In this document: positions 3,057 to 10,516 of the stretch, one piece after another
Numbering within the stretch: the stretch's first letter is position 1
Layout of the letters: each line of letters opens with the position of its first letter
DNA from: a virus
UHGV virus genome: UHGV-1718161
Reading direction: 5' to 3' (one strand)
DNA length: 10,522 bases
Program-made: the position numbers and the translations under genes
The notes under the pieces: model-generated
Database searches by the model: none
What the model was told of the DNA's origin: nothing
The model's input: only the letters and a program-made list of their open reading frames with translations

Positions 3057-3092
3057 CTACTTAAAATAGCAAAATGCAACTACTTAAAATAG
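3057..3092. promoter_or_regulatory. OR-like operator/promoter region between divergent cro and cI: two copies of the 13-bp site CTACTTAAAATAG
   Basis: Seen directly: ctacttaaaatag at 3057-3069 and again at 3080-3092 (centres 23 bp apart), in the 70-bp gap between the cro start (3024) and the cI start. Related 13-mers with the same CTA...TAG ends occur at 3893-3905 and 5305-5317. Confidence 0.5.
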
Positions 3093-3094
3093 AA

Positions 3095-3835
3095 ATGACT
3101 AGCGTATGTGATGCGAGTAATCTTCTACCTATGGTAGAAGAACAGAAGTATCCAGATTTCGCCAAGAGACTAAACGAGCTAATGACAAACAAGGGAATTT
3201 CTGTCACCCAACTCAAAAGTCTTGTGGGCGTTACATATGAAATGGCGCGGCGATACACAATCGGCGCTGCGAAGCCTCGTGCCTCTGTCATGAATAAACT
3301 TGCATTGGCTCTGGGGGTATCAGCTTCATATTTAGAATATGGTGTTGGCGAGAGAGAAGGATGTAAGGAAATGGCAAGCATCCCCAATCCAACAAAACCC
3401 GATGTATACAGGATAGAAGTTTTGGATCTTAGCGTTAGCGCAGGACCTGGGACCTATATGCTTTCAGACTATGTTGATGTGCTCTACGCCATTGAGTTCA
3501 CAACAGAGCATGCCCGTTCTCTTTTCGGTAATCGTTCTCAAGATGATATTAAAGTTATGACTGTAAATGGCGACAGCATGTCCCCTACTCTAGTTTCCGG
3601 AGATCGACTGTTTGTCGACATTTCTGTTCGCAACTTCCAAACTGATGGTGTTTACTCTTTCGTTTATGGTAAGACGTTCCACGTTAAACGTCTACAAATG
3701 CAAGGCAACAAACTCGCCGTTCTTTCGGATAATCCAGCCTATGAGAAATGGTACATTGATGAGAAGTCCCAAGATCAACTTTATGTTATGGGCAAAGCAT
3801 TGATACACGAATCAATTAAATACAACCGGCTTTAG
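3095..3835 (+). CDS. cI: cI-type prophage repressor (N-terminal XRE-family HTH, C-terminal LexA-like S24 peptidase domain)
   Basis: HTH (FAKRLNELMTNKGISVTQLKSLVGVTYEMARRY), S24 serine motif (VNGDSMSPTL) and downstream catalytic Lys (FHVKRL). Start is ambiguous: the ORF-track ATG at 3074 lies between the two operator copies, so I prefer ATG 3095 (leaderless-style); ATG 3131 is also possible. Stop TAG 3833-3835. Confidence 0.85.
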   Translation: MTSVCDASNLLPMVEEQKYPDFAKRLNELMTNKGISVTQLKSLVGVTYEMARRYTIGAAKPRASVMNKLALALGVSASYLEYGVGEREGCKEMASIPNPTKPDVYRIEVLDLSVSAGPGTYMLSDYVDVLYAIEFTTEHARSLFGNRSQDDIKVMTVNGDSMSPTLVSGDRLFVDISVRNFQTDGVYSFVYGKTFHVKRLQMQGNKLAVLSDNPAYEKWYIDEKSQDQLYVMGKALIHESIKYNRL

Positions 3836-4006
3836 TTCTTCGTTTAGACTATAGAACTAAAGGTAAAAAAAATAATATTTAGCAAGCAAGTGCTATTACT
3901 AATAGTTGTTTTACTCTCTTATTTTTATTAAACATTATCATTAACAATATAAAATAATTACCCAGCGTAAATTACAATATGCTGGGGGTCGAAAGGATAG
4001 AGAAAC

Positions 4007-5083
4007 ATGACAAAATCAATTTGTTTTTTTAATCATAAAGGTGGGGTAAGTAAAACCACAACAACCTTCAATCTTGGATGGGCACTTGCGGATGAAGGCA
4101 AGAAAGTATTGATGGTTGACCTTGATTCGCAATGTAATCTAACAGGAATGGTTCTTGGCTATGAAAAGATTGATGAGGGTTTAGATTCTTTTTATTCTAG
4201 CAGAGATAACTTAACTCTTGGACCTATTGTAGAATATTTGATTAATGGCGGACAACCTGAAGCATACCTTGAAAAAGAAACGGGAAAATTACACCCTACA
4301 CTGCATGAAAACCTTCTGCTTCTTCCCGGACATTTAGATGTTTCGGACTTAGATTCACAGATAAGTGTTTCTCTAAAAATTGCTGCTGGTATTCCTGCTA
4401 CAAGAAATATACCAGGGAACCTGCCAAAAATATTACAGCTAATCGCCTTGAAGAATAATATTGATTACATTCTTTATGATCTCAGCCCTAATGTTGGAGG
4501 TTTAAATGAAGTAGTTCTCATGTCAAGTGACTATTTTATCGTACCTGTAGCTCCAGACTTTTTTTGCTGGCAAGCAATTCGCTCTCTCTCAAAAAATATA
4601 CCTCGCTGGCACAAAGAATTAGCATTATTTAAAGAAAATAATGATGGTAACTCTTCACAATCAATTAAAAATGCACCGCAGTTTCTAGGTATGATTCAGC
4701 AGAGATACAGGCCGCGTAAAGGAGCACCTGTAAAATCTTTCGAAAAATGGATGGCAGCTATCCGTGATGCTGTTGATTCGATCTTAGTGCCAAATCTAGA
4801 AAAAATTACCTGCATAATTCCACGAGATAAAGTGCAACATGCAATTAACAAAACAACAGTCAGTGGAGATTTATCAGCCTATGATCTTGCGCATATTTCC
4901 GATTTCAACTCATTAATCGCAATAAGCCAACAACTAGCGACACCTGTTTTCTCCATCAGTGATCAGCAAATTCGCGATTCAGGGCAATTTGGGCATGCCT
5001 TAAATACAATGAAATCAAGCAGAGACGCCTTTAACGAACAATTTAAAGGGCTGGCTCAACGAGTTCTAGAACTTACAAAGTAA
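4007..5083 (+). CDS. ParA/MinD-superfamily ATPase with a roughly 120-aa C-terminal extension (358 aa); candidate lysogen-expressed exclusion/defence protein
   Basis: Deviant Walker A NHKGGVSKTT (res 9-18), ParA-type LMVDLDSQCNL, Walker-B-like ILYDLSP. AAGGA/GAGAAA RBS before ATG 4007. Sits in a visibly AT-rich segment directly downstream of cI in the same orientation and is followed by an intrinsic terminator. No ParB-like partner ORF or parS-like repeats nearby. Confidence 0.85.
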   Translation: MTKSICFFNHKGGVSKTTTTFNLGWALADEGKKVLMVDLDSQCNLTGMVLGYEKIDEGLDSFYSSRDNLTLGPIVEYLINGGQPEAYLEKETGKLHPTLHENLLLLPGHLDVSDLDSQISVSLKIAAGIPATRNIPGNLPKILQLIALKNNIDYILYDLSPNVGGLNEVVLMSSDYFIVPVAPDFFCWQAIRSLSKNIPRWHKELALFKENNDGNSSQSIKNAPQFLGMIQQRYRPRKGAPVKSFEKWMAAIRDAVDSILVPNLEKITCIIPRDKVQHAINKTTVSGDLSAYDLAHISDFNSLIAISQQLATPVFSISDQQIRDSGQFGHALNTMKSSRDAFNEQFKGLAQRVLELTK

Positions 5084-5090
5084 TGCATGT

Positions 5091-5127
5091 GCCCGGCCGC
5101 ATAACCGGGCTTTACTCTTCTTTCTCC
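5091..5127 (+). terminator. rho-independent terminator after the ParA-like gene
   Basis: GCCCGG (5091-5096), loop ccgcataa, CCGGGC (5105-5110), followed by a T-rich tract tttactcttctttct. Confidence 0.6.
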
Positions 5128-5268
5128 CTGATTAATCTCATAAAAAACTCCCTCCTCATAATTCACTATGCTCAATACCTACTCCAACTTCGTGCGATAT
5201 TTTCAGTTTACAGCATAGTAAATCAGCAAAAACATTTAACTTTCAATTAATTATAGAAAAATCATAGA

Positions 5269-5326
5269 CAACAACAAATATCTACTTTTTGTTGTTGATT
5301 TTTGCTACTTTAAGTAGCAACATAAT
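5269..5326 (+). promoter_or_regulatory. pL/OL-like regulatory region: two adjacent palindromes plus a -10-like CATAAT
   Basis: Inverted repeat caacaacaaa (5269-5278) / tttgttgttg (5288-5297). Perfect 19-bp palindrome ttgctacttTaagtagcaa (5302-5320) containing the operator-like 13-mer CTACTTTAAGTAG (5305-5317). CATAAT at 5321-5326, TTGATT at 5295-5300 (spacing not ideal). Position mirrors lambda oL/pL after the rex slot. Confidence 0.35.
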
Positions 5327-5404
5327 GTAAGCTATCACGGACAGGCAGGACGCCCACGAAGTAGCCTCCTGGGACATATGAAGTCCAGGATGATTCGTTA
5401 GCAA

Positions 5405-5428
5405 CAAAAAAGCGCCCTACAGGACGCT
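5405..5428 (-). terminator. rho-independent terminator of the minus-strand 173-aa gene
   Basis: On the minus strand: AGCGTCC-TGTA-GGGCGCT (7-bp stem with one G-U pair) followed by TTTTTTGTTGC, about 40 nt after the stop at 5471. Confidence 0.55.
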
Positions 5429-5430
5429 TA

Positions 5431-5443
5431 GCTCTTTAACAAT
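5431..5443 (+). promoter_or_regulatory. boxA-like antitermination motif (GCTCTTTAACAAT), rrn/phage-21-type
   Basis: Plus-strand gcttaGCTCTTTAACAATctggg matches the rrn boxA core TGCTCTTTAACAA and resembles the phage 21 nut boxA as I recall it. Lies about 110 nt downstream of the pL-like palindrome and 2 nt after a hairpin (boxB-before-boxA order, as in rrn leaders). Confidence 0.4.
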
Positions 5444-5470
5444 CTGGGTATCATCCAACCAATGCAAGAT

Positions 5471-5992
5471 TTAAGGAATCCAAGGCGAATTCAGATCTCG
5501 CCCCAACTCACGTAATGATCTTGGTCGTTCGTACATCGGATTTTTTTCCATAAGAAATTTATTTTCACAGTGAAGGCAACGGCTTGTAAGAAAATGAGAA
5601 GTTTTACCTACTGGAAGCGGATGAAGTATCGATTTTATATTTTTGGAATAACAAAGTGGGCACAGATGCACAGTTATTTCTTTTCCACTCACAATTTCAT
5701 TTTTAGAGTAAACAAAAGCACCAGAGTCAAGCTGATCAAGGACATATCCTTCTACCTTGGCACAAAAATCTTCAAACTCTGCAATTTTTGCTTTGAGATG
5801 CATCACCTCTTCATCACGAAGGCGGATCGCATCGCCAAGAGAGAAGCATTCTGCCTGAAGCGTGATTAGTTTGTTCTGGAGTTCAATGGTTGCAGCTTTA
5901 ACTTCTGCATCCGTTTTCGCGTCATTAATAACCTTAGCAAGACCGGCAGTCTCCTTTATAGCGGCCATAGCCGCAGACAGTTCAGCTATCAC
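5471..5992 (-). CDS. hypothetical coiled-coil protein with a C-terminal C4 zinc ribbon (173 aa)
   Basis: N-terminal 80 residues are Ala/Lys/Glu-rich and helical; CPLC (111-114) and CLHC (139-142) form CxxC-x24-CxxC. ORF-track start is a GTG at 5992; the first ATG is at 5968-5966, neither with a strong SD. Own terminator downstream. Antisense plus-strand ORFs (5570..5869, 5862..6056) look like low-complexity shadows. Confidence 0.7.
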   Translation of the reverse strand: MIAELSAAMAAIKETAGLAKVINDAKTDAEVKAATIELQNKLITLQAECFSLGDAIRLRDEEVMHLKAKIAEFEDFCAKVEGYVLDQLDSGAFVYSKNEIVSGKEITVHLCPLCYSKNIKSILHPLPVGKTSHFLTSRCLHCENKFLMEKNPMYERPRSLRELGRDLNSPWIP

Positions 5993-6008
5993 GTTGAATA
6001 CTCAGCTA

Positions 6009-6052
6009 GTTGTTGGGGATATCCAGATTAACCAAATCCTTGTTGTTGGGGA
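6009..6052. repeat. two direct copies of GTTGTTGGGGA flanked by CTAG, in the promoter region of the 173-aa gene
   Basis: gttgttgggga at 6009-6019 (followed by tat) and at 6042-6052 (followed by ata), 33 bp apart; ctag at 6005-6008 and 6057-6060. Confidence 0.45.
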
Positions 6053-6461
6053 ATAACTAGGTCCACCTCGCCTGATGTGGCTAAAAGCAGGCACATAACA
6101 GCTAAGTATTTTCAACCAGAGAGAATCCTTAGCGTTGTGGTGAATGCGGCTCAGCGCACGCGGGTTAAGGTTGAGGCTGACAGTCGACCTTCTGTGGATA
6201 CCCACCCGCCTGGTGTGCAACCTTCGCCAGGCACCGGGAGGCACCCGGCACCACAACTTTATGCTGTGTGTAGTCCTGGCGGTATCAGCTTGTACCCTTG
6301 CTTCCGGCTGGTACCGTCCTTTTTACAAAACAGAGAAGAGTATCACCGGACGACGGGCTCATAACCCAATCCATCCGGGCGGCTGCCACCGCAGGTGTTC
6401 TTCTCTGTTTTGTGGAGAAACCAACCGACCTTGCAGGGTCGATATGATGGGGAGCAGCAAA

Positions 6462-6824
6462 ATGGCTAGCGAACGCAGTACTGATGTGCAGGCATTTATC
6501 GGGGAGCTGGACGGCGGCGTATTTGAAACCAAAATCGGCGCAGTTCTCAGTGAAGTCGCTTCCGGTGTGATGAACACGAAAACCAAAGGTAAGGTCTCGC
6601 TCAACCTGGAAATCGAACCGTTTGATGAGAACCGTGTAAAAATCAAACACAAACTCTCATATGTTCGCCCGACTAACCGCGGGAAAATTTCCGAAGAAGA
6701 CACCACCGAAACGCCGATGTATGTCAATCGCGGTGGTCGCCTGACTATTCTGCAGGAAGACCAGGGACAATTACTGACTCTTGCCGGTGAACCTGACGGA
6801 AAACTCCGCGCAGCAGGTCGTTAA
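6462..6824 (+). CDS. yfdP: hypothetical early-left accessory protein, YfdP-like (120 aa)
   Basis: The ORF-track frame is open from 6144, but the N-terminal 100 aa are R/C/W/P-rich junk typical of GC-rich non-coding DNA. ATG 6462 is preceded by GGAGC. Length and position match the first gene of the yfdP-Q-R-S-T block of E. coli K-12 CPS-53 (recalled from memory). Confidence 0.6.
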   Translation: MASERSTDVQAFIGELDGGVFETKIGAVLSEVASGVMNTKTKGKVSLNLEIEPFDENRVKIKHKLSYVRPTNRGKISEEDTTETPMYVNRGGRLTILQEDQGQLLTLAGEPDGKLRAAGR

Positions 6825-6889
6825 TATCGTTTTTAATAAACTGATTATTTATCTCATCACTGAATATCTTTATATAGTGAGGACTTATT

Positions 6890-7714
6890 ATGTCTCAGAA
6901 CTTAGACGCAACCGCAATTAATCAAATCCATGCCCTTATTTCTGCTCAGGGTGTTAATGAAATTATCAGTAAGATTGGTGCCGATGCTGTGGCATTGCCT
7001 GAGAATTTCCGCATTCATGATCTGGAAAAATTTAATTTAAATCGCTTCCGTTTCCGTGGTGCGCTTTCCACTGCCAGCATCGATGACTTTACCCGTTATT
7101 CTAAAGATCTTGCAGATGAAGGCACCCGCTGCTTTATCGATGCTGATAATATGCGAGCCGTCAGTGTGCTTAACCTGGGTACTATTGATGAACCAGGTCA
7201 CGCAGATAACACCGCCACTCTCAAACTGAAAAAGACAGCACCGTTCTCTGCCCTGTTGTCTGTTAACGGCGAGCGTAACTCCCAGAAGTCACTGGCAGAA
7301 TGGATTGAAGACTGGGCCGACTACCTTGTGGGCTTTGATGCTAATGGTGACGCCATTCAGGCAACAAAAGCGGCTGCGGCGGTCCGTAAAATCACGATTG
7401 AAGCAAACCAGACCGCTGATTTTGAAGACAATGACTTCAGCGGCAAACGCTCTCTGATGGAGTCTGTCGAAGCGAAAACCAAAGACATTATGCCAGTAGC
7501 ATTTGAGTTTAAATGCGTTCCGTTTGAAGGCCTGAAAGAACGTCCGTTTAAATTACGCCTCAGCATTATCACTGGTGATCGCCCTGTACTGGTTCTGCGC
7601 ATTATTCAGCTGGAAGCAGTGCAGGAAGAAATGGCTAACGAATTTCGTGATCTGCTTGTTGAAAAATTCAAAGACAGCAAAGTAGAAACCTTTATTGGTA
7701 CTTTCACCGCCTGA
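6890..7714 (+). CDS. yfdQ: YfdQ-family phage protein (274 aa), function unknown
   Basis: Clean ORF with GAGGA 6 nt before ATG 6890, followed by a hairpin terminator. Length, sequence impression and gene order match YfdQ of K-12 CPS-53 (recalled). Confidence 0.75.
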
Positions 7715-10440: not shown

Positions 10441-10516
10441 TGGTGCCGATAATAGGAGTCGAACCTACGACCTTCGCATTACGAATGCGCTGCTCTACCA
10501 ACTGAGCTATATCGGC
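10441..10516 (-). tRNA. thrW: tRNA-Thr (anticodon CGU), thrW-type; prophage attachment site at its 3' end
   Basis: Reverse complement reads GCCGATATAGCTCAGTTGGTAGAGCAGCGCATTCGTAATGCGAAGGTCGTAGGTTCGACTCCTATTATCGGCACCA. Acceptor stem GCCGATA/TATCGGC, anticodon loop TTCGTAA (CGT), T-loop TTCGACT, encoded CCA. Confidence 0.9.

Follow-up and report, generated by a model that had tools for sequence, protein, structure and literature searches.

We analysed a window of 10,522 nucleotides (nt) from the virus genome UHGV-1718161, a lambdoid (SfV/mEp460-like) Escherichia coli prophage beside tRNA-Thr(CGT) and proA. An earlier note, made from the DNA letters, had flagged positions 6061 to 6461 of this window, directly upstream of yfdP, as a GC-rich, structured and non-coding segment that might act as a cis-acting or small RNA. 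We found that the flagged segment is non-coding and that ~6133-6322 on the plus strand probably specifies a structured small RNA (sRNA) of ~190 nt, composed of a folded domain, a single-stranded stretch and a DicF-like terminator. On sequence comparison, the locus qualifies as a real, conserved RNA gene of known kind with a predicted function, and its RNA as a local allele or version of the sRNA-17 / STnc100 family and not as a new type of element. The small-RNA suggestion is borne out by the non-coding character of the segment, its structured plus strand, a match to STnc100, covariation, and equivalence to sRNA-17. The positions of all features are given in Table 1.

Identity, structure and conservation of the RNA

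At gathering thresholds, Rfam reports only a tRNA in the window. The Rfam/Infernal search that the earlier note had proposed gave, when scanned by E-value, a full-length, sub-threshold match to STnc100 (RF02076), in which 6104-6326 align to model positions 1-206 (40.5 bits, E 2.6e-7 in a 701-nt search). The match includes the core and the closing helix, and both UGGUGAAU and CACCGGGAGGCACCCGGCACCA are consensus. STnc100 is a prophage sRNA, one copy of which lies 75 nt downstream of stx2 (PMC12370729), and it overlaps the Hfq-binding EcOnc27, which is sRNA103 in EDL933 (PMC12711010). The Salmonella LT2 copies are described as expressed, with RpoD and RpoN detected at their promoter regions by ChIP-exo, that is, chromatin immunoprecipitation with exonuclease digestion (PMC10794520). 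PasD1 and PasD2 of enteropathogenic E. coli, related to STnc100 in a 2026 preprint (Zhu-Shabalina-Storz), were found via Hfq RIL-seq (in which interacting RNAs are ligated and then sequenced). The window element and STnc100 share the identical 22-nt core CACCGGGAGGCACCCGGCACCA, the GGUGAAU motif, the architecture of P1, P4, P5 and pseudoknot, the prophage location and a 3' terminator. They differ in P2 (GCGGCUCAGCGCACGC in the window, CCCCUGUGCGGAGGGG in STnc100). Unlike STnc100, the window has no recognised promoter directly before P1 and its terminator is DicF-like; of the STnc100-type transcription unit, the terminator at 6278-6322 was found and a sigma70-like promoter before P1 was not. 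The setting also differs, as the window element lies in the early-left operon, whereas the described STnc100 copies are 3' of stx2 and PasD is near the antiterminator Q gene and lpxR.

The second named relative, sRNA-17 of E. coli K1 RS218, is a 193-nt RNA of an mEp460-like prophage, defined by 5'/3' rapid amplification of cDNA ends (RACE) and Northern blotting; it accumulates as one discrete species that spans P1 to the U-tract and is more abundant in stationary phase, and its authors found no Rfam homologue (PMC7719688). With the published full-length primers, RACE primers and Northern probe (PMC7719688, Table S2), we located sRNA-17 in mEp460 (L125 2854-3046), where it begins one base 5' of P1, ends in the U-tract of the terminator and lies directly upstream of yfdP. 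The window element lies likewise immediately 5' of yfdP, on the yfdP strand, in an mEp460/SfV-like prophage. Window positions 6277-6461 are 95-96% identical to the sRNA-17 module, long hairpin included, and in mEp460-type prophages the 95%-identical terminator module forms the 3' end that was mapped for sRNA-17. The identity does not extend over the whole 193 nt: BLAST does not align the 5' 140 nt, and the two 5' domains are joined only at the level of a covariance model (26.2 bits, E 3.3e-4). Both RNAs have the GUUGUGGUG...CACCACAAC closing helix, the AAU junction, a first hairpin, a last hairpin abutting P1, a linker, and the terminator GGCGGUA(U/C)CAG...CUGGUACCG. The 5' domain of sRNA-17 is a kissing-loop allele (GCGCA-GGCUGA-UGCGC with GCCGG-AGAUCAGCA-CCGG), unlike that of the window, which has the STnc100-type core CCGGG-AGGCA-CCCGG and a pseudoknot to the P4 loop. 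The linker with its candidate seed is AGCCACUGCUUU in sRNA-17 versus UUUAUGCUGUGUGUAGUCCU in the window, and the window copy would fall among the sequences called 'degenerative sRNA-17' by the sRNA-17 authors. The link between sRNA-17 and STnc100 appears to be new, as far as the searched literature shows.

The earlier note had also proposed a search for compensatory base changes in related prophages, and we found covariation both in the helices and in the pseudoknot among dozens of relatives from phages. A covariance model (R1) was built from 31 enteric-type sequences including the window, which, as a member of the training set, scores 79.5 bits. MAFFT aligned P2 and P4 out of register between window-type and STnc100-type members, so the pairs were counted on an alignment of the R1 hits, which leans toward structure because it was fitted to the model. 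Paired cells make up 86.8% of this alignment versus at most 46% when the partners are slid. Fourteen of the 25 nested pairs change on both sides, giving 98 compensated cells versus 32 ± 5 in shuffles (0 of 500 shuffles reached this number), with such changes in all eight pairs of P4 and three of the five of P5. The pseudoknot, tested by a separate comparison of cognate and non-cognate strands, is at a constant offset, and 28 different strand sequences occur among 33 representatives (for example AAGGCUG/CAGCCUU in phiES15, CAGUUAA/UUAACUG in Qin and AGACUGACAAA/UUUGUCAGUCU in L013).

The exact 22-mer CACCGGGAGGCACCCGGCACCA was detected in viral contigs at no fewer than 120 loci (108 distinct contexts, 38 clusters at 75% identity). 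Most of these loci open with UGGUGAAU-CCCCUnnGCGGnGGGG, several have a TTGACA-17/18-TAAATT promoter ending ~7 nt before P1, and most terminate in a terminator. Covariation of the outer P1 pairs is seen in this set, whose selection took no account of the 5' strand (2.68 contiguous pairs versus 1.89 ± 0.095 with shuffled partners).

The higher GC content reported by the earlier note holds, at 0.565-0.595 across 6101-6400 versus 0.36-0.49 in both flanks. The fold of 6104-6330 has z = -2.5 relative to dinucleotide shuffles on the plus strand and z = -0.09 on the minus strand; the structure is stronger than chance, and only the plus strand is unusually stable. For 6320-6465 the value is z = -3.8 (0 of 200 shuffles equally stable). 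The two adjacent hairpins first noticed in this DNA are real (GCCTGG-13 nt-CCAGGC at 6208-6232 and CCGGG-AGGCA-CCCGG at 6234-6248, with A6233 as the spacer), yet they are not free-standing: P1 closes a domain of five helices, of which they are P4 and P5. A 15-nt perfect inverted repeat is likewise present at 6325-6339/6399-6413, its second arm having been placed one base off (6398-6412), and forms the core of the 6320-6418 stem.

Protein coding is excluded for practical purposes, whether as an N-terminally extended YfdP (open reading frame (ORF) 6144-6824) or in the form of the annotated 'hypothetical protein' genes. ORF 6144-6824 is open and in the yfdP frame in the window, and the Prokaryotic Genome Annotation Pipeline (PGAP) puts hypothetical coding sequences (CDSs) under the matching region in many genomes. 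However, a Pfam search with ORFs 6077-6364, 6002-6256, the 6144 extension and 6285-6650 (minus strand) gave zero matches, and strain Z247 has a CDS annotated as a frameshifted pseudogene at the equivalent position. Relative to Salmonella phage ST64B, 6118-6461 has frame-breaking indels of 1, 1, 3, 16, 1 and 1 nt, and substitutions by codon position number 21/26/22, without third-position bias, versus 24/31/73 in the yfdP CDS; nucleotide identity is higher in the non-coding segment (79.8%) than in the yfdP CDS (64.1%). The ATG at 6144 belongs to the AAUG of the conserved RNA junction GGUGAAUGCG, and yfdP has its own Shine-Dalgarno sequence at 6450-6454. The absence of Pfam matches, the indels and the lack of codon periodicity agree with the first assessment of ORFs 6077-6364 and 6002-6256 and the 6144 extension as non-coding.

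The 3' part of the RNA resembles DicF. The terminator at 6278-6322 folds at -20.4 kcal/mol on the plus strand versus -13.8 kcal/mol on the minus strand, and the whole Rfam DicF model (RF00039) aligns to it (20.5 bits, E 0.064). Twelve bases (UGGCGGUAUCAG) are identical between DicF and the window RNA, whose 5' single strands and terminators can also be aligned, and both lie in an operon transcribed from the immunity region toward int. The order of the modules differs, as the window domain precedes the DicF-like end whereas in Qin DicF precedes the domain, and the seed bases of DicF differ from those of the window. Northern blots of dicBF detected no longer species past dicF, and its transcript is processed by RNase III as well as RNase E. 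The linker, which aligns with the 5' part of DicF, is kept in ST64B (UGCUGUGUGAAGUC) and phiES15 (UGCUGUGUGUAGUC) despite their differing terminators, the pattern expected for a seed before an Hfq-type terminator. The long hairpin that follows is kept in 16 sequence variants, and Salmonella has compensatory changes in it (GAGAAG/CUUCUC to GAAAAG/CUUUUC, and GCGG/CCGC to GCUG/CAGC).

Relatives in phages and bacterial genomes

SfV, ST64B, 118970_sal3, phiES15 and mEp460 have the element at the same place and in the same orientation, with the repressor region on one side and the early-left genes on the other; these early-left genes can be of the yfdP or of the kil/gam kind. A further, full member of the family occupies the unannotated dicF-dicB spacer of the K-12 prophage Qin (L129 2452-2585). 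It scores 34.4 bits against STnc100 (E 3.7e-4), has an 11-bp P1 and compensatory changes both in P5 (CCUGG/CCAGG) and in the pseudoknot, and makes up most of the dicB 5' leader. The late leader of lambda, between tR' and S (L124 ~1045-1115), is probably a collapsed remnant of the domain (GUUGUGCUGAAU...ACCGGAAGCAGAACCGGAUCACCAA). This remnant, CAGUGCUCUUUCCGUUGUGCUGAAU..ACCGGAAGCAGAACCGGAUCACCAA, was not scored by model R1; its UGCUCUUUCC flank is boxA-like and precedes P1 in many window-type copies. The element is absent from K-12 CPS-53, where the gap between yfdO and yfdP consists of other repeats and has no non-coding RNA annotation.

A wider type, with the consensus UGUGGUGAAU-GCGCA GUGCUGA UGCGC ... 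GCCGG AGAUCAGCA CCGGC-CACCACA, was found by scanning viral contigs with a 5' motif. In these copies the first and last hairpins pair through their loops, and the kissing loops covary (GCUGAU/AUCAGC, GAUGAU/AUCAUC, GCUUAU/AUAAGC, GCGAU/AUCGC). Some copies adjoin phage tRNA genes or hold T-arm-like hairpins. Thirteen wider-type loci searched at Rfam gathering thresholds gave tRNA matches only, and four more searched at E <= 1 gave no Rfam family on the wider-type copies. Model R1 detects sRNA-17 and wider-type members outside its training set (E 7e-5 to 6e-3). The sRNA-17-type core also occurs in genomes of Citrobacter, Pseudocitrobacter, Klebsiella, Kluyvera, Superficieibacter, Pantoea, Erwinia, Rahnella, Rouxiella, Marinobacterium and Janthinobacterium and in a metagenome-assembled genome of the Rhodocyclaceae, in a pattern search of which about half of the matches were chance matches without a P1 partner (an earlier pattern gave none). 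Tandem copies of the domain, 275-484 nt apart, were observed in seven viral contigs (L018, L035, L049, L069, L122, L146 and L220); two of these (L146 and L220) have one kissing-loop-type copy followed by an enteric-type copy ~400 nt downstream.

The full region is present in 893 of 5426 complete E. coli genomes (about one in six), its 3' module in 2859 of the 5426 (about half), and the region is also carried by SfII, SfIV and SfV, serotype-converting phages of Shigella. Records that contain it leave it unannotated or name it 'hypothetical protein'. The analysis yields a secondary-structure model with a pseudoknot and places sRNA-17, STnc100 with EcOnc27, the Qin dicF-dicB spacer and probably the lambda late-leader remnant in one structural family, to which PasD is assigned solely on the Zhu-Shabalina-Storz preprint. 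The structural model and the uniting of separately named RNAs are what the analysis adds, and the comparison suggests that most of the family lies outside the present Rfam model.

Possible roles and competing explanations

The role that we consider most likely is a dual one, in which the RNA would be a terminator-defined sRNA, probably Hfq-binding, and at the same time an insulator of the downstream early-left genes. Transcripts entering from upstream would mostly stop at the 6278-6322 terminator. Termination there would create an sRNA with a stem-loop and U-tail as a 3' end suited to Hfq and with the linker as its seed, and the same event would shield yfdP-yfdT from upstream transcription and hold their expression down in the lysogen. 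In read-through transcripts the 25-bp hairpin at 6320-6418 would form; it starts in the U-tract and is probably an RNase III-type site parting the sRNA from the yfdP mRNA, comparable to those of DicF in Qin and of the lambda N leader, or else may serve as an insulator. When sRNA-17 was replaced by a resistance cassette, yfdP rose ~95-fold and yfdR rose too (PMC7719688). The rise in yfdP would fit a cis effect, and a model of termination and insulation would account for the sRNA-17 deletion mostly changing its downstream neighbours.

Several observations weigh against this dual role or against parts of it. Read-through from the inserted cassette could explain the rise in yfdP equally well. The link to Hfq comes from STnc100/EcOnc27 and PasD and not from sRNA-17 or the window allele; the transcript evidence comes from homologues, the window allele being known from its sequence alone, and the 5' end of the window RNA is placed solely by that of sRNA-17. 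The gathering scores were missed for both STnc100 (40.5 versus 47 bits) and DicF (20.5 versus 48 bits), and a simple terminator scan missed the 6278-6322 terminator, which has a 14-nt loop. A promoter scan of 5400-6900 found no sigma70-type promoter, so the RNA would probably be cut from a longer transcript or made from an unrecognised promoter; many STnc100-type copies, unlike the window, have TTGACA-17/18-TAAATT directly before P1. Cleavage of the long hairpin by RNase III is a conjecture, and the hairpin is as stable on the minus strand as on the plus strand; because both strands fold equally well, its strand is assigned from context alone. Complementarity of the DicF-like end to ftsZ is not above shuffled controls (z = +0.49, with z = -1.27 for DicF itself, in a crude unconstrained duplex test). 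Finally, the paired and junction nucleotides are strongly invariant, which suits a domain that senses or binds a factor more than it does a plain scaffold.

This last point leads to the most serious alternative, a cis-acting sensor or attenuator whose domain binds a host or phage factor or a small ligand and gates the stop at the following terminator. The genes so gated would be yfdP-yfdT here and, in relatives, lysis genes, kil or dicB, and the 'sRNA' would mainly be the terminated by-product, as for RNAs derived from riboswitches. The invariant junction and loop nucleotides, with the exact 22-mer in more than 100 different contexts, speak for it, as do the covarying stems and the conserved pseudoknot or kissing loop. 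In the copies with examined downstream sequence, the domain is followed by a terminator and by genes of matching orientation, and replacement of sRNA-17 hit the immediately downstream genes hardest. We nevertheless regard it as unlikely, as inspection found no antiterminator pairing of the domain or linker with the 5' strand of the terminator, the linker varies from 20 to 150 nt across the family, the Qin domain lies 3' of the DicF terminator and not before one, and no conserved partner gene goes with the domain. Doubtful to a similar degree is a broader proposal, by which the domain would be one branch of a widespread, largely unannotated class of tertiary-folded phage RNAs, represented in Rfam by STnc100 alone, with a tRNA-like helix order and a covarying pseudoknot or kissing loop, in Gamma- and Betaproteobacteria prophages and viral metagenomes. 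Such RNAs would bind a conserved factor or ligand and control termination or processing before toxic blocks (dicB, kil, lysis, yfdP-T), and base-pairing sRNA activity would be secondary.

The helix order of the domain is that of the tRNA cloverleaf, which invites comparison with a tRNA-like mimic or processing signal that is cut out by tRNA-processing enzymes or acts as a decoy for tRNA-directed factors. The closing stem, 3-nt linker, first hairpin, variable middle and last hairpin abutting the 3' strand follow this order; in the wider family there are the covarying kissing loop and several copies beside phage tRNA genes or with T-arm-like hairpins, and the 5' end of sRNA-17 is at the base of P1 without a recognisable promoter. 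However, ARAGORN and the Rfam tRNA model call only the tRNA-Thr at 10441-10516 and not the domain, the P5 loop has 5 nt whereas a T-loop has 7, P1 and P5 stack to 14 bp and not 12, and the CACCA segment is base-paired and variable. We consider this explanation improbable.

Resemblance to the put RNAs of HK022 or to boxB, suggested at first by the two stem-loops, was not sustained. Under this explanation the hairpins would be a nut/boxB site or a put-type RNA for processive antitermination, and would modify RNA polymerase for read-through of downstream terminators. As in put, the two hairpins are parted by one nucleotide. These phages show no N-like gene, annotated or otherwise, in the stretch from the repressor to the early-left genes, and the operon has terminators that need to be passed. 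The hairpins are, however, parts of a larger closed domain, and the homologues end at a terminator directly after it, with independent STnc100 copies having their own promoter and terminator. Relatives that accumulate as discrete terminated RNAs are the opposite of a processive antiterminator before its own terminator. The position also differs: putL sits just downstream of an early promoter and putR within ~270 nt, whereas the domain begins at 6134, ~800 nt downstream of the promoter at ~5300-5335. Comparison of HK022 putL and putR with the element gave BLAST matches at E >= 4 only and no likeness by eye, and model R1 has no match in the HK022 immunity region (L002). We therefore judge a put-type function very improbable. 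A lambda-type nut/boxB site was rejected, as the loops are of 13 nt and AGGCA and not a GNRA-like pentaloop in a 15-nt hairpin, and no boxA is adjacent.

Feature positions and the early-left operon

Table 1. Positions of the RNA features and neighbouring genes in the window.
Feature	Position	Strand	Sequence	Remark
Conserved upstream block	6063..6099	+	CCACCUCGCCUGAUGUGGCUAAAAGCAGGCACAUAAC	Travels with the RNA module
P0 hairpin	6101..6133	+	GCUAAGUAUUUUC / GAGAAUCCUUAGC	Inverted repeat and minimum free energy fold; abuts 5' end of domain
Pseudoknotted five-helix domain	6134..6257	+		124 nt
P1	6134-6142 / 6249-6257	+	GUUGUGGUG / CACCACAAC	Closing helix
Junction	6143-6145	+	AAU	
P2	6146-6161	+		Followed by a variable stretch
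Pseudoknot	6167-6173 / 6218-6224	+	AAGGUUG / CAACCUU	Second strand in P4 loop
P4	6208-6213 / 6227-6232	+		First hairpin of the earlier note; extendable to 8 bp
Spacer between P4 and P5	6233	+	A	Single nucleotide
P5	6234-6238 / 6244-6248	+	CCGGG-AGGCA-CCCGG	Second hairpin of the earlier note; abuts 3' strand of P1
Single-stranded linker	6258..6277	+	UUUAUGCUGUGUGUAGUCCU	20 nt, unpaired in fold
Candidate seed	6262-6275	+	UGCUGUGUGUAGUC	
DicF-like intrinsic terminator	6278..6322	+	GGCGGUAUCAGC / GCUGGUACCGUC, then UUUUU	12-13 bp stem
Long hairpin	6320..6418	+		~25-bp stem, branched tip; 5' arm begins in terminator U-tract
Small hairpin	6424-6443	+	ACCGACCUUGCAGGGUCGAU	
Shine-Dalgarno	6450-6454	+	GGGAG	
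yfdP start codon	6462-6464	+	ATG	yfdP annotated at equivalent position in Z247 and K-12
Early and replication genes	Left end of window	-		Rightward genes
cI-like S24/HTH repressor	3074-3835			
AT-rich insert with ParA-like ATPase	ATPase 4007-5083			
Predicted promoter/operator region	~5270-5340			
Conserved leader	5341-5400			
ORF	5471-5992	-		
yfdP, yfdQ, yfdR, yfdS, yfdT, excisionase-like gene, integrase	3' of flagged segment			In this order

From this gene order, the flagged segment sits within the early-left operon, which runs from the immunity region to int. The block upstream of P0 recurs almost unchanged at L127 3501-3540 of Cronobacter phage phiES15 and in similar form at L003 ~5000-5040 of SfV, both with different flanking genes, and it may be a promoter of a non-sigma70 type or the 5' portion of a precursor. 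Within it, TGGCTAAAAGCAGGCA at 6078-6093 has the GG-N10-GC spacing of a sigma54 -24/-12 promoter (TGGC..GC), a lead only; this spacing is kept in phiES15 and one base longer in SfV, and would put the start near 6104, where the Rfam STnc100 alignment begins. The P0 position is occupied by other hairpins in ST64B (UAAGAG..CUCUUA) and phiES15 (AUGAAGCGCAUU..AAUGCGCUUCAU).

The region at 5270-5340 is likely, by its sequence features, the early-left promoter with its operators (apparent promoter at ~5300-5335). It holds the palindromes CAACAACAAA..TTTGTTGTTG and GCTACTTTAAGTAGC followed by a -10-like ATAATG, and the SfV equivalent has TTGACA-17-ATAATG with its own operator repeats (L003 4373-4401). 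The leader at 5341-5400 (GGCAGGACGCCCACGAAGUAGCC...CCAGGAUGAUUCG), which begins the early-left transcript, is conserved and structured; it was found in 32 of the retrieved loci, SfV and ST64B among them, and its hairpin UCCUGG/CCAGGA covaries (CCGGU/ACCGG in ST64B). The leader and HK022 putL/putR have in common AGGAUGA and a 5' ACNGAaCGGC-like motif, and BLAST, as well as RNAalifold on put plus the leader, gave no clear support either way. For put-like antitermination the leader is a better, unproven, candidate than the flagged hairpins.

Between the cI-like repressor and the early-left promoter, in the slot of rexAB in lambda, lies an AT-rich insert (3840-5300, 28-40% GC), which may be lysogenic-conversion or defence cargo. 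It encodes the ATPase, which is ParA/MinD-like (AAA_31, E 2.4e-29), and has a 55-aa ORF; the PADLOC candidate PDC-M28B matched it only weakly, via the P-loop. Matches to C4 antisense RNA and isrK above the Rfam threshold occur in the antirepressor regions of mEp460 (L125 323-511) and ST64B (L126 909-1097), and Rfam gave no such match in the window.

Downstream of the leader, a perfect rrn-type boxA (GCUCUUUAACAA) is found at 5432-5443 on the plus strand, directly after a GC-rich hairpin at 5410-5429; the chance expectation for such a boxA 12-mer in the window is ~0.001. The order of hairpin then boxA at 5410-5443 is rrn-leader-like and not lambda nut-like, and on the minus strand the hairpin resembles a terminator of ORF 5471-5992. 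This ORF (173 aa, without family match) lies antisense inside the early-left operon, so early-left transcripts have to traverse it before they reach the RNA locus. The presumed promoter region of the ORF contains the direct repeats CT(A/T)GTTGTTGGGGA (6006-6019 and 6039-6052).

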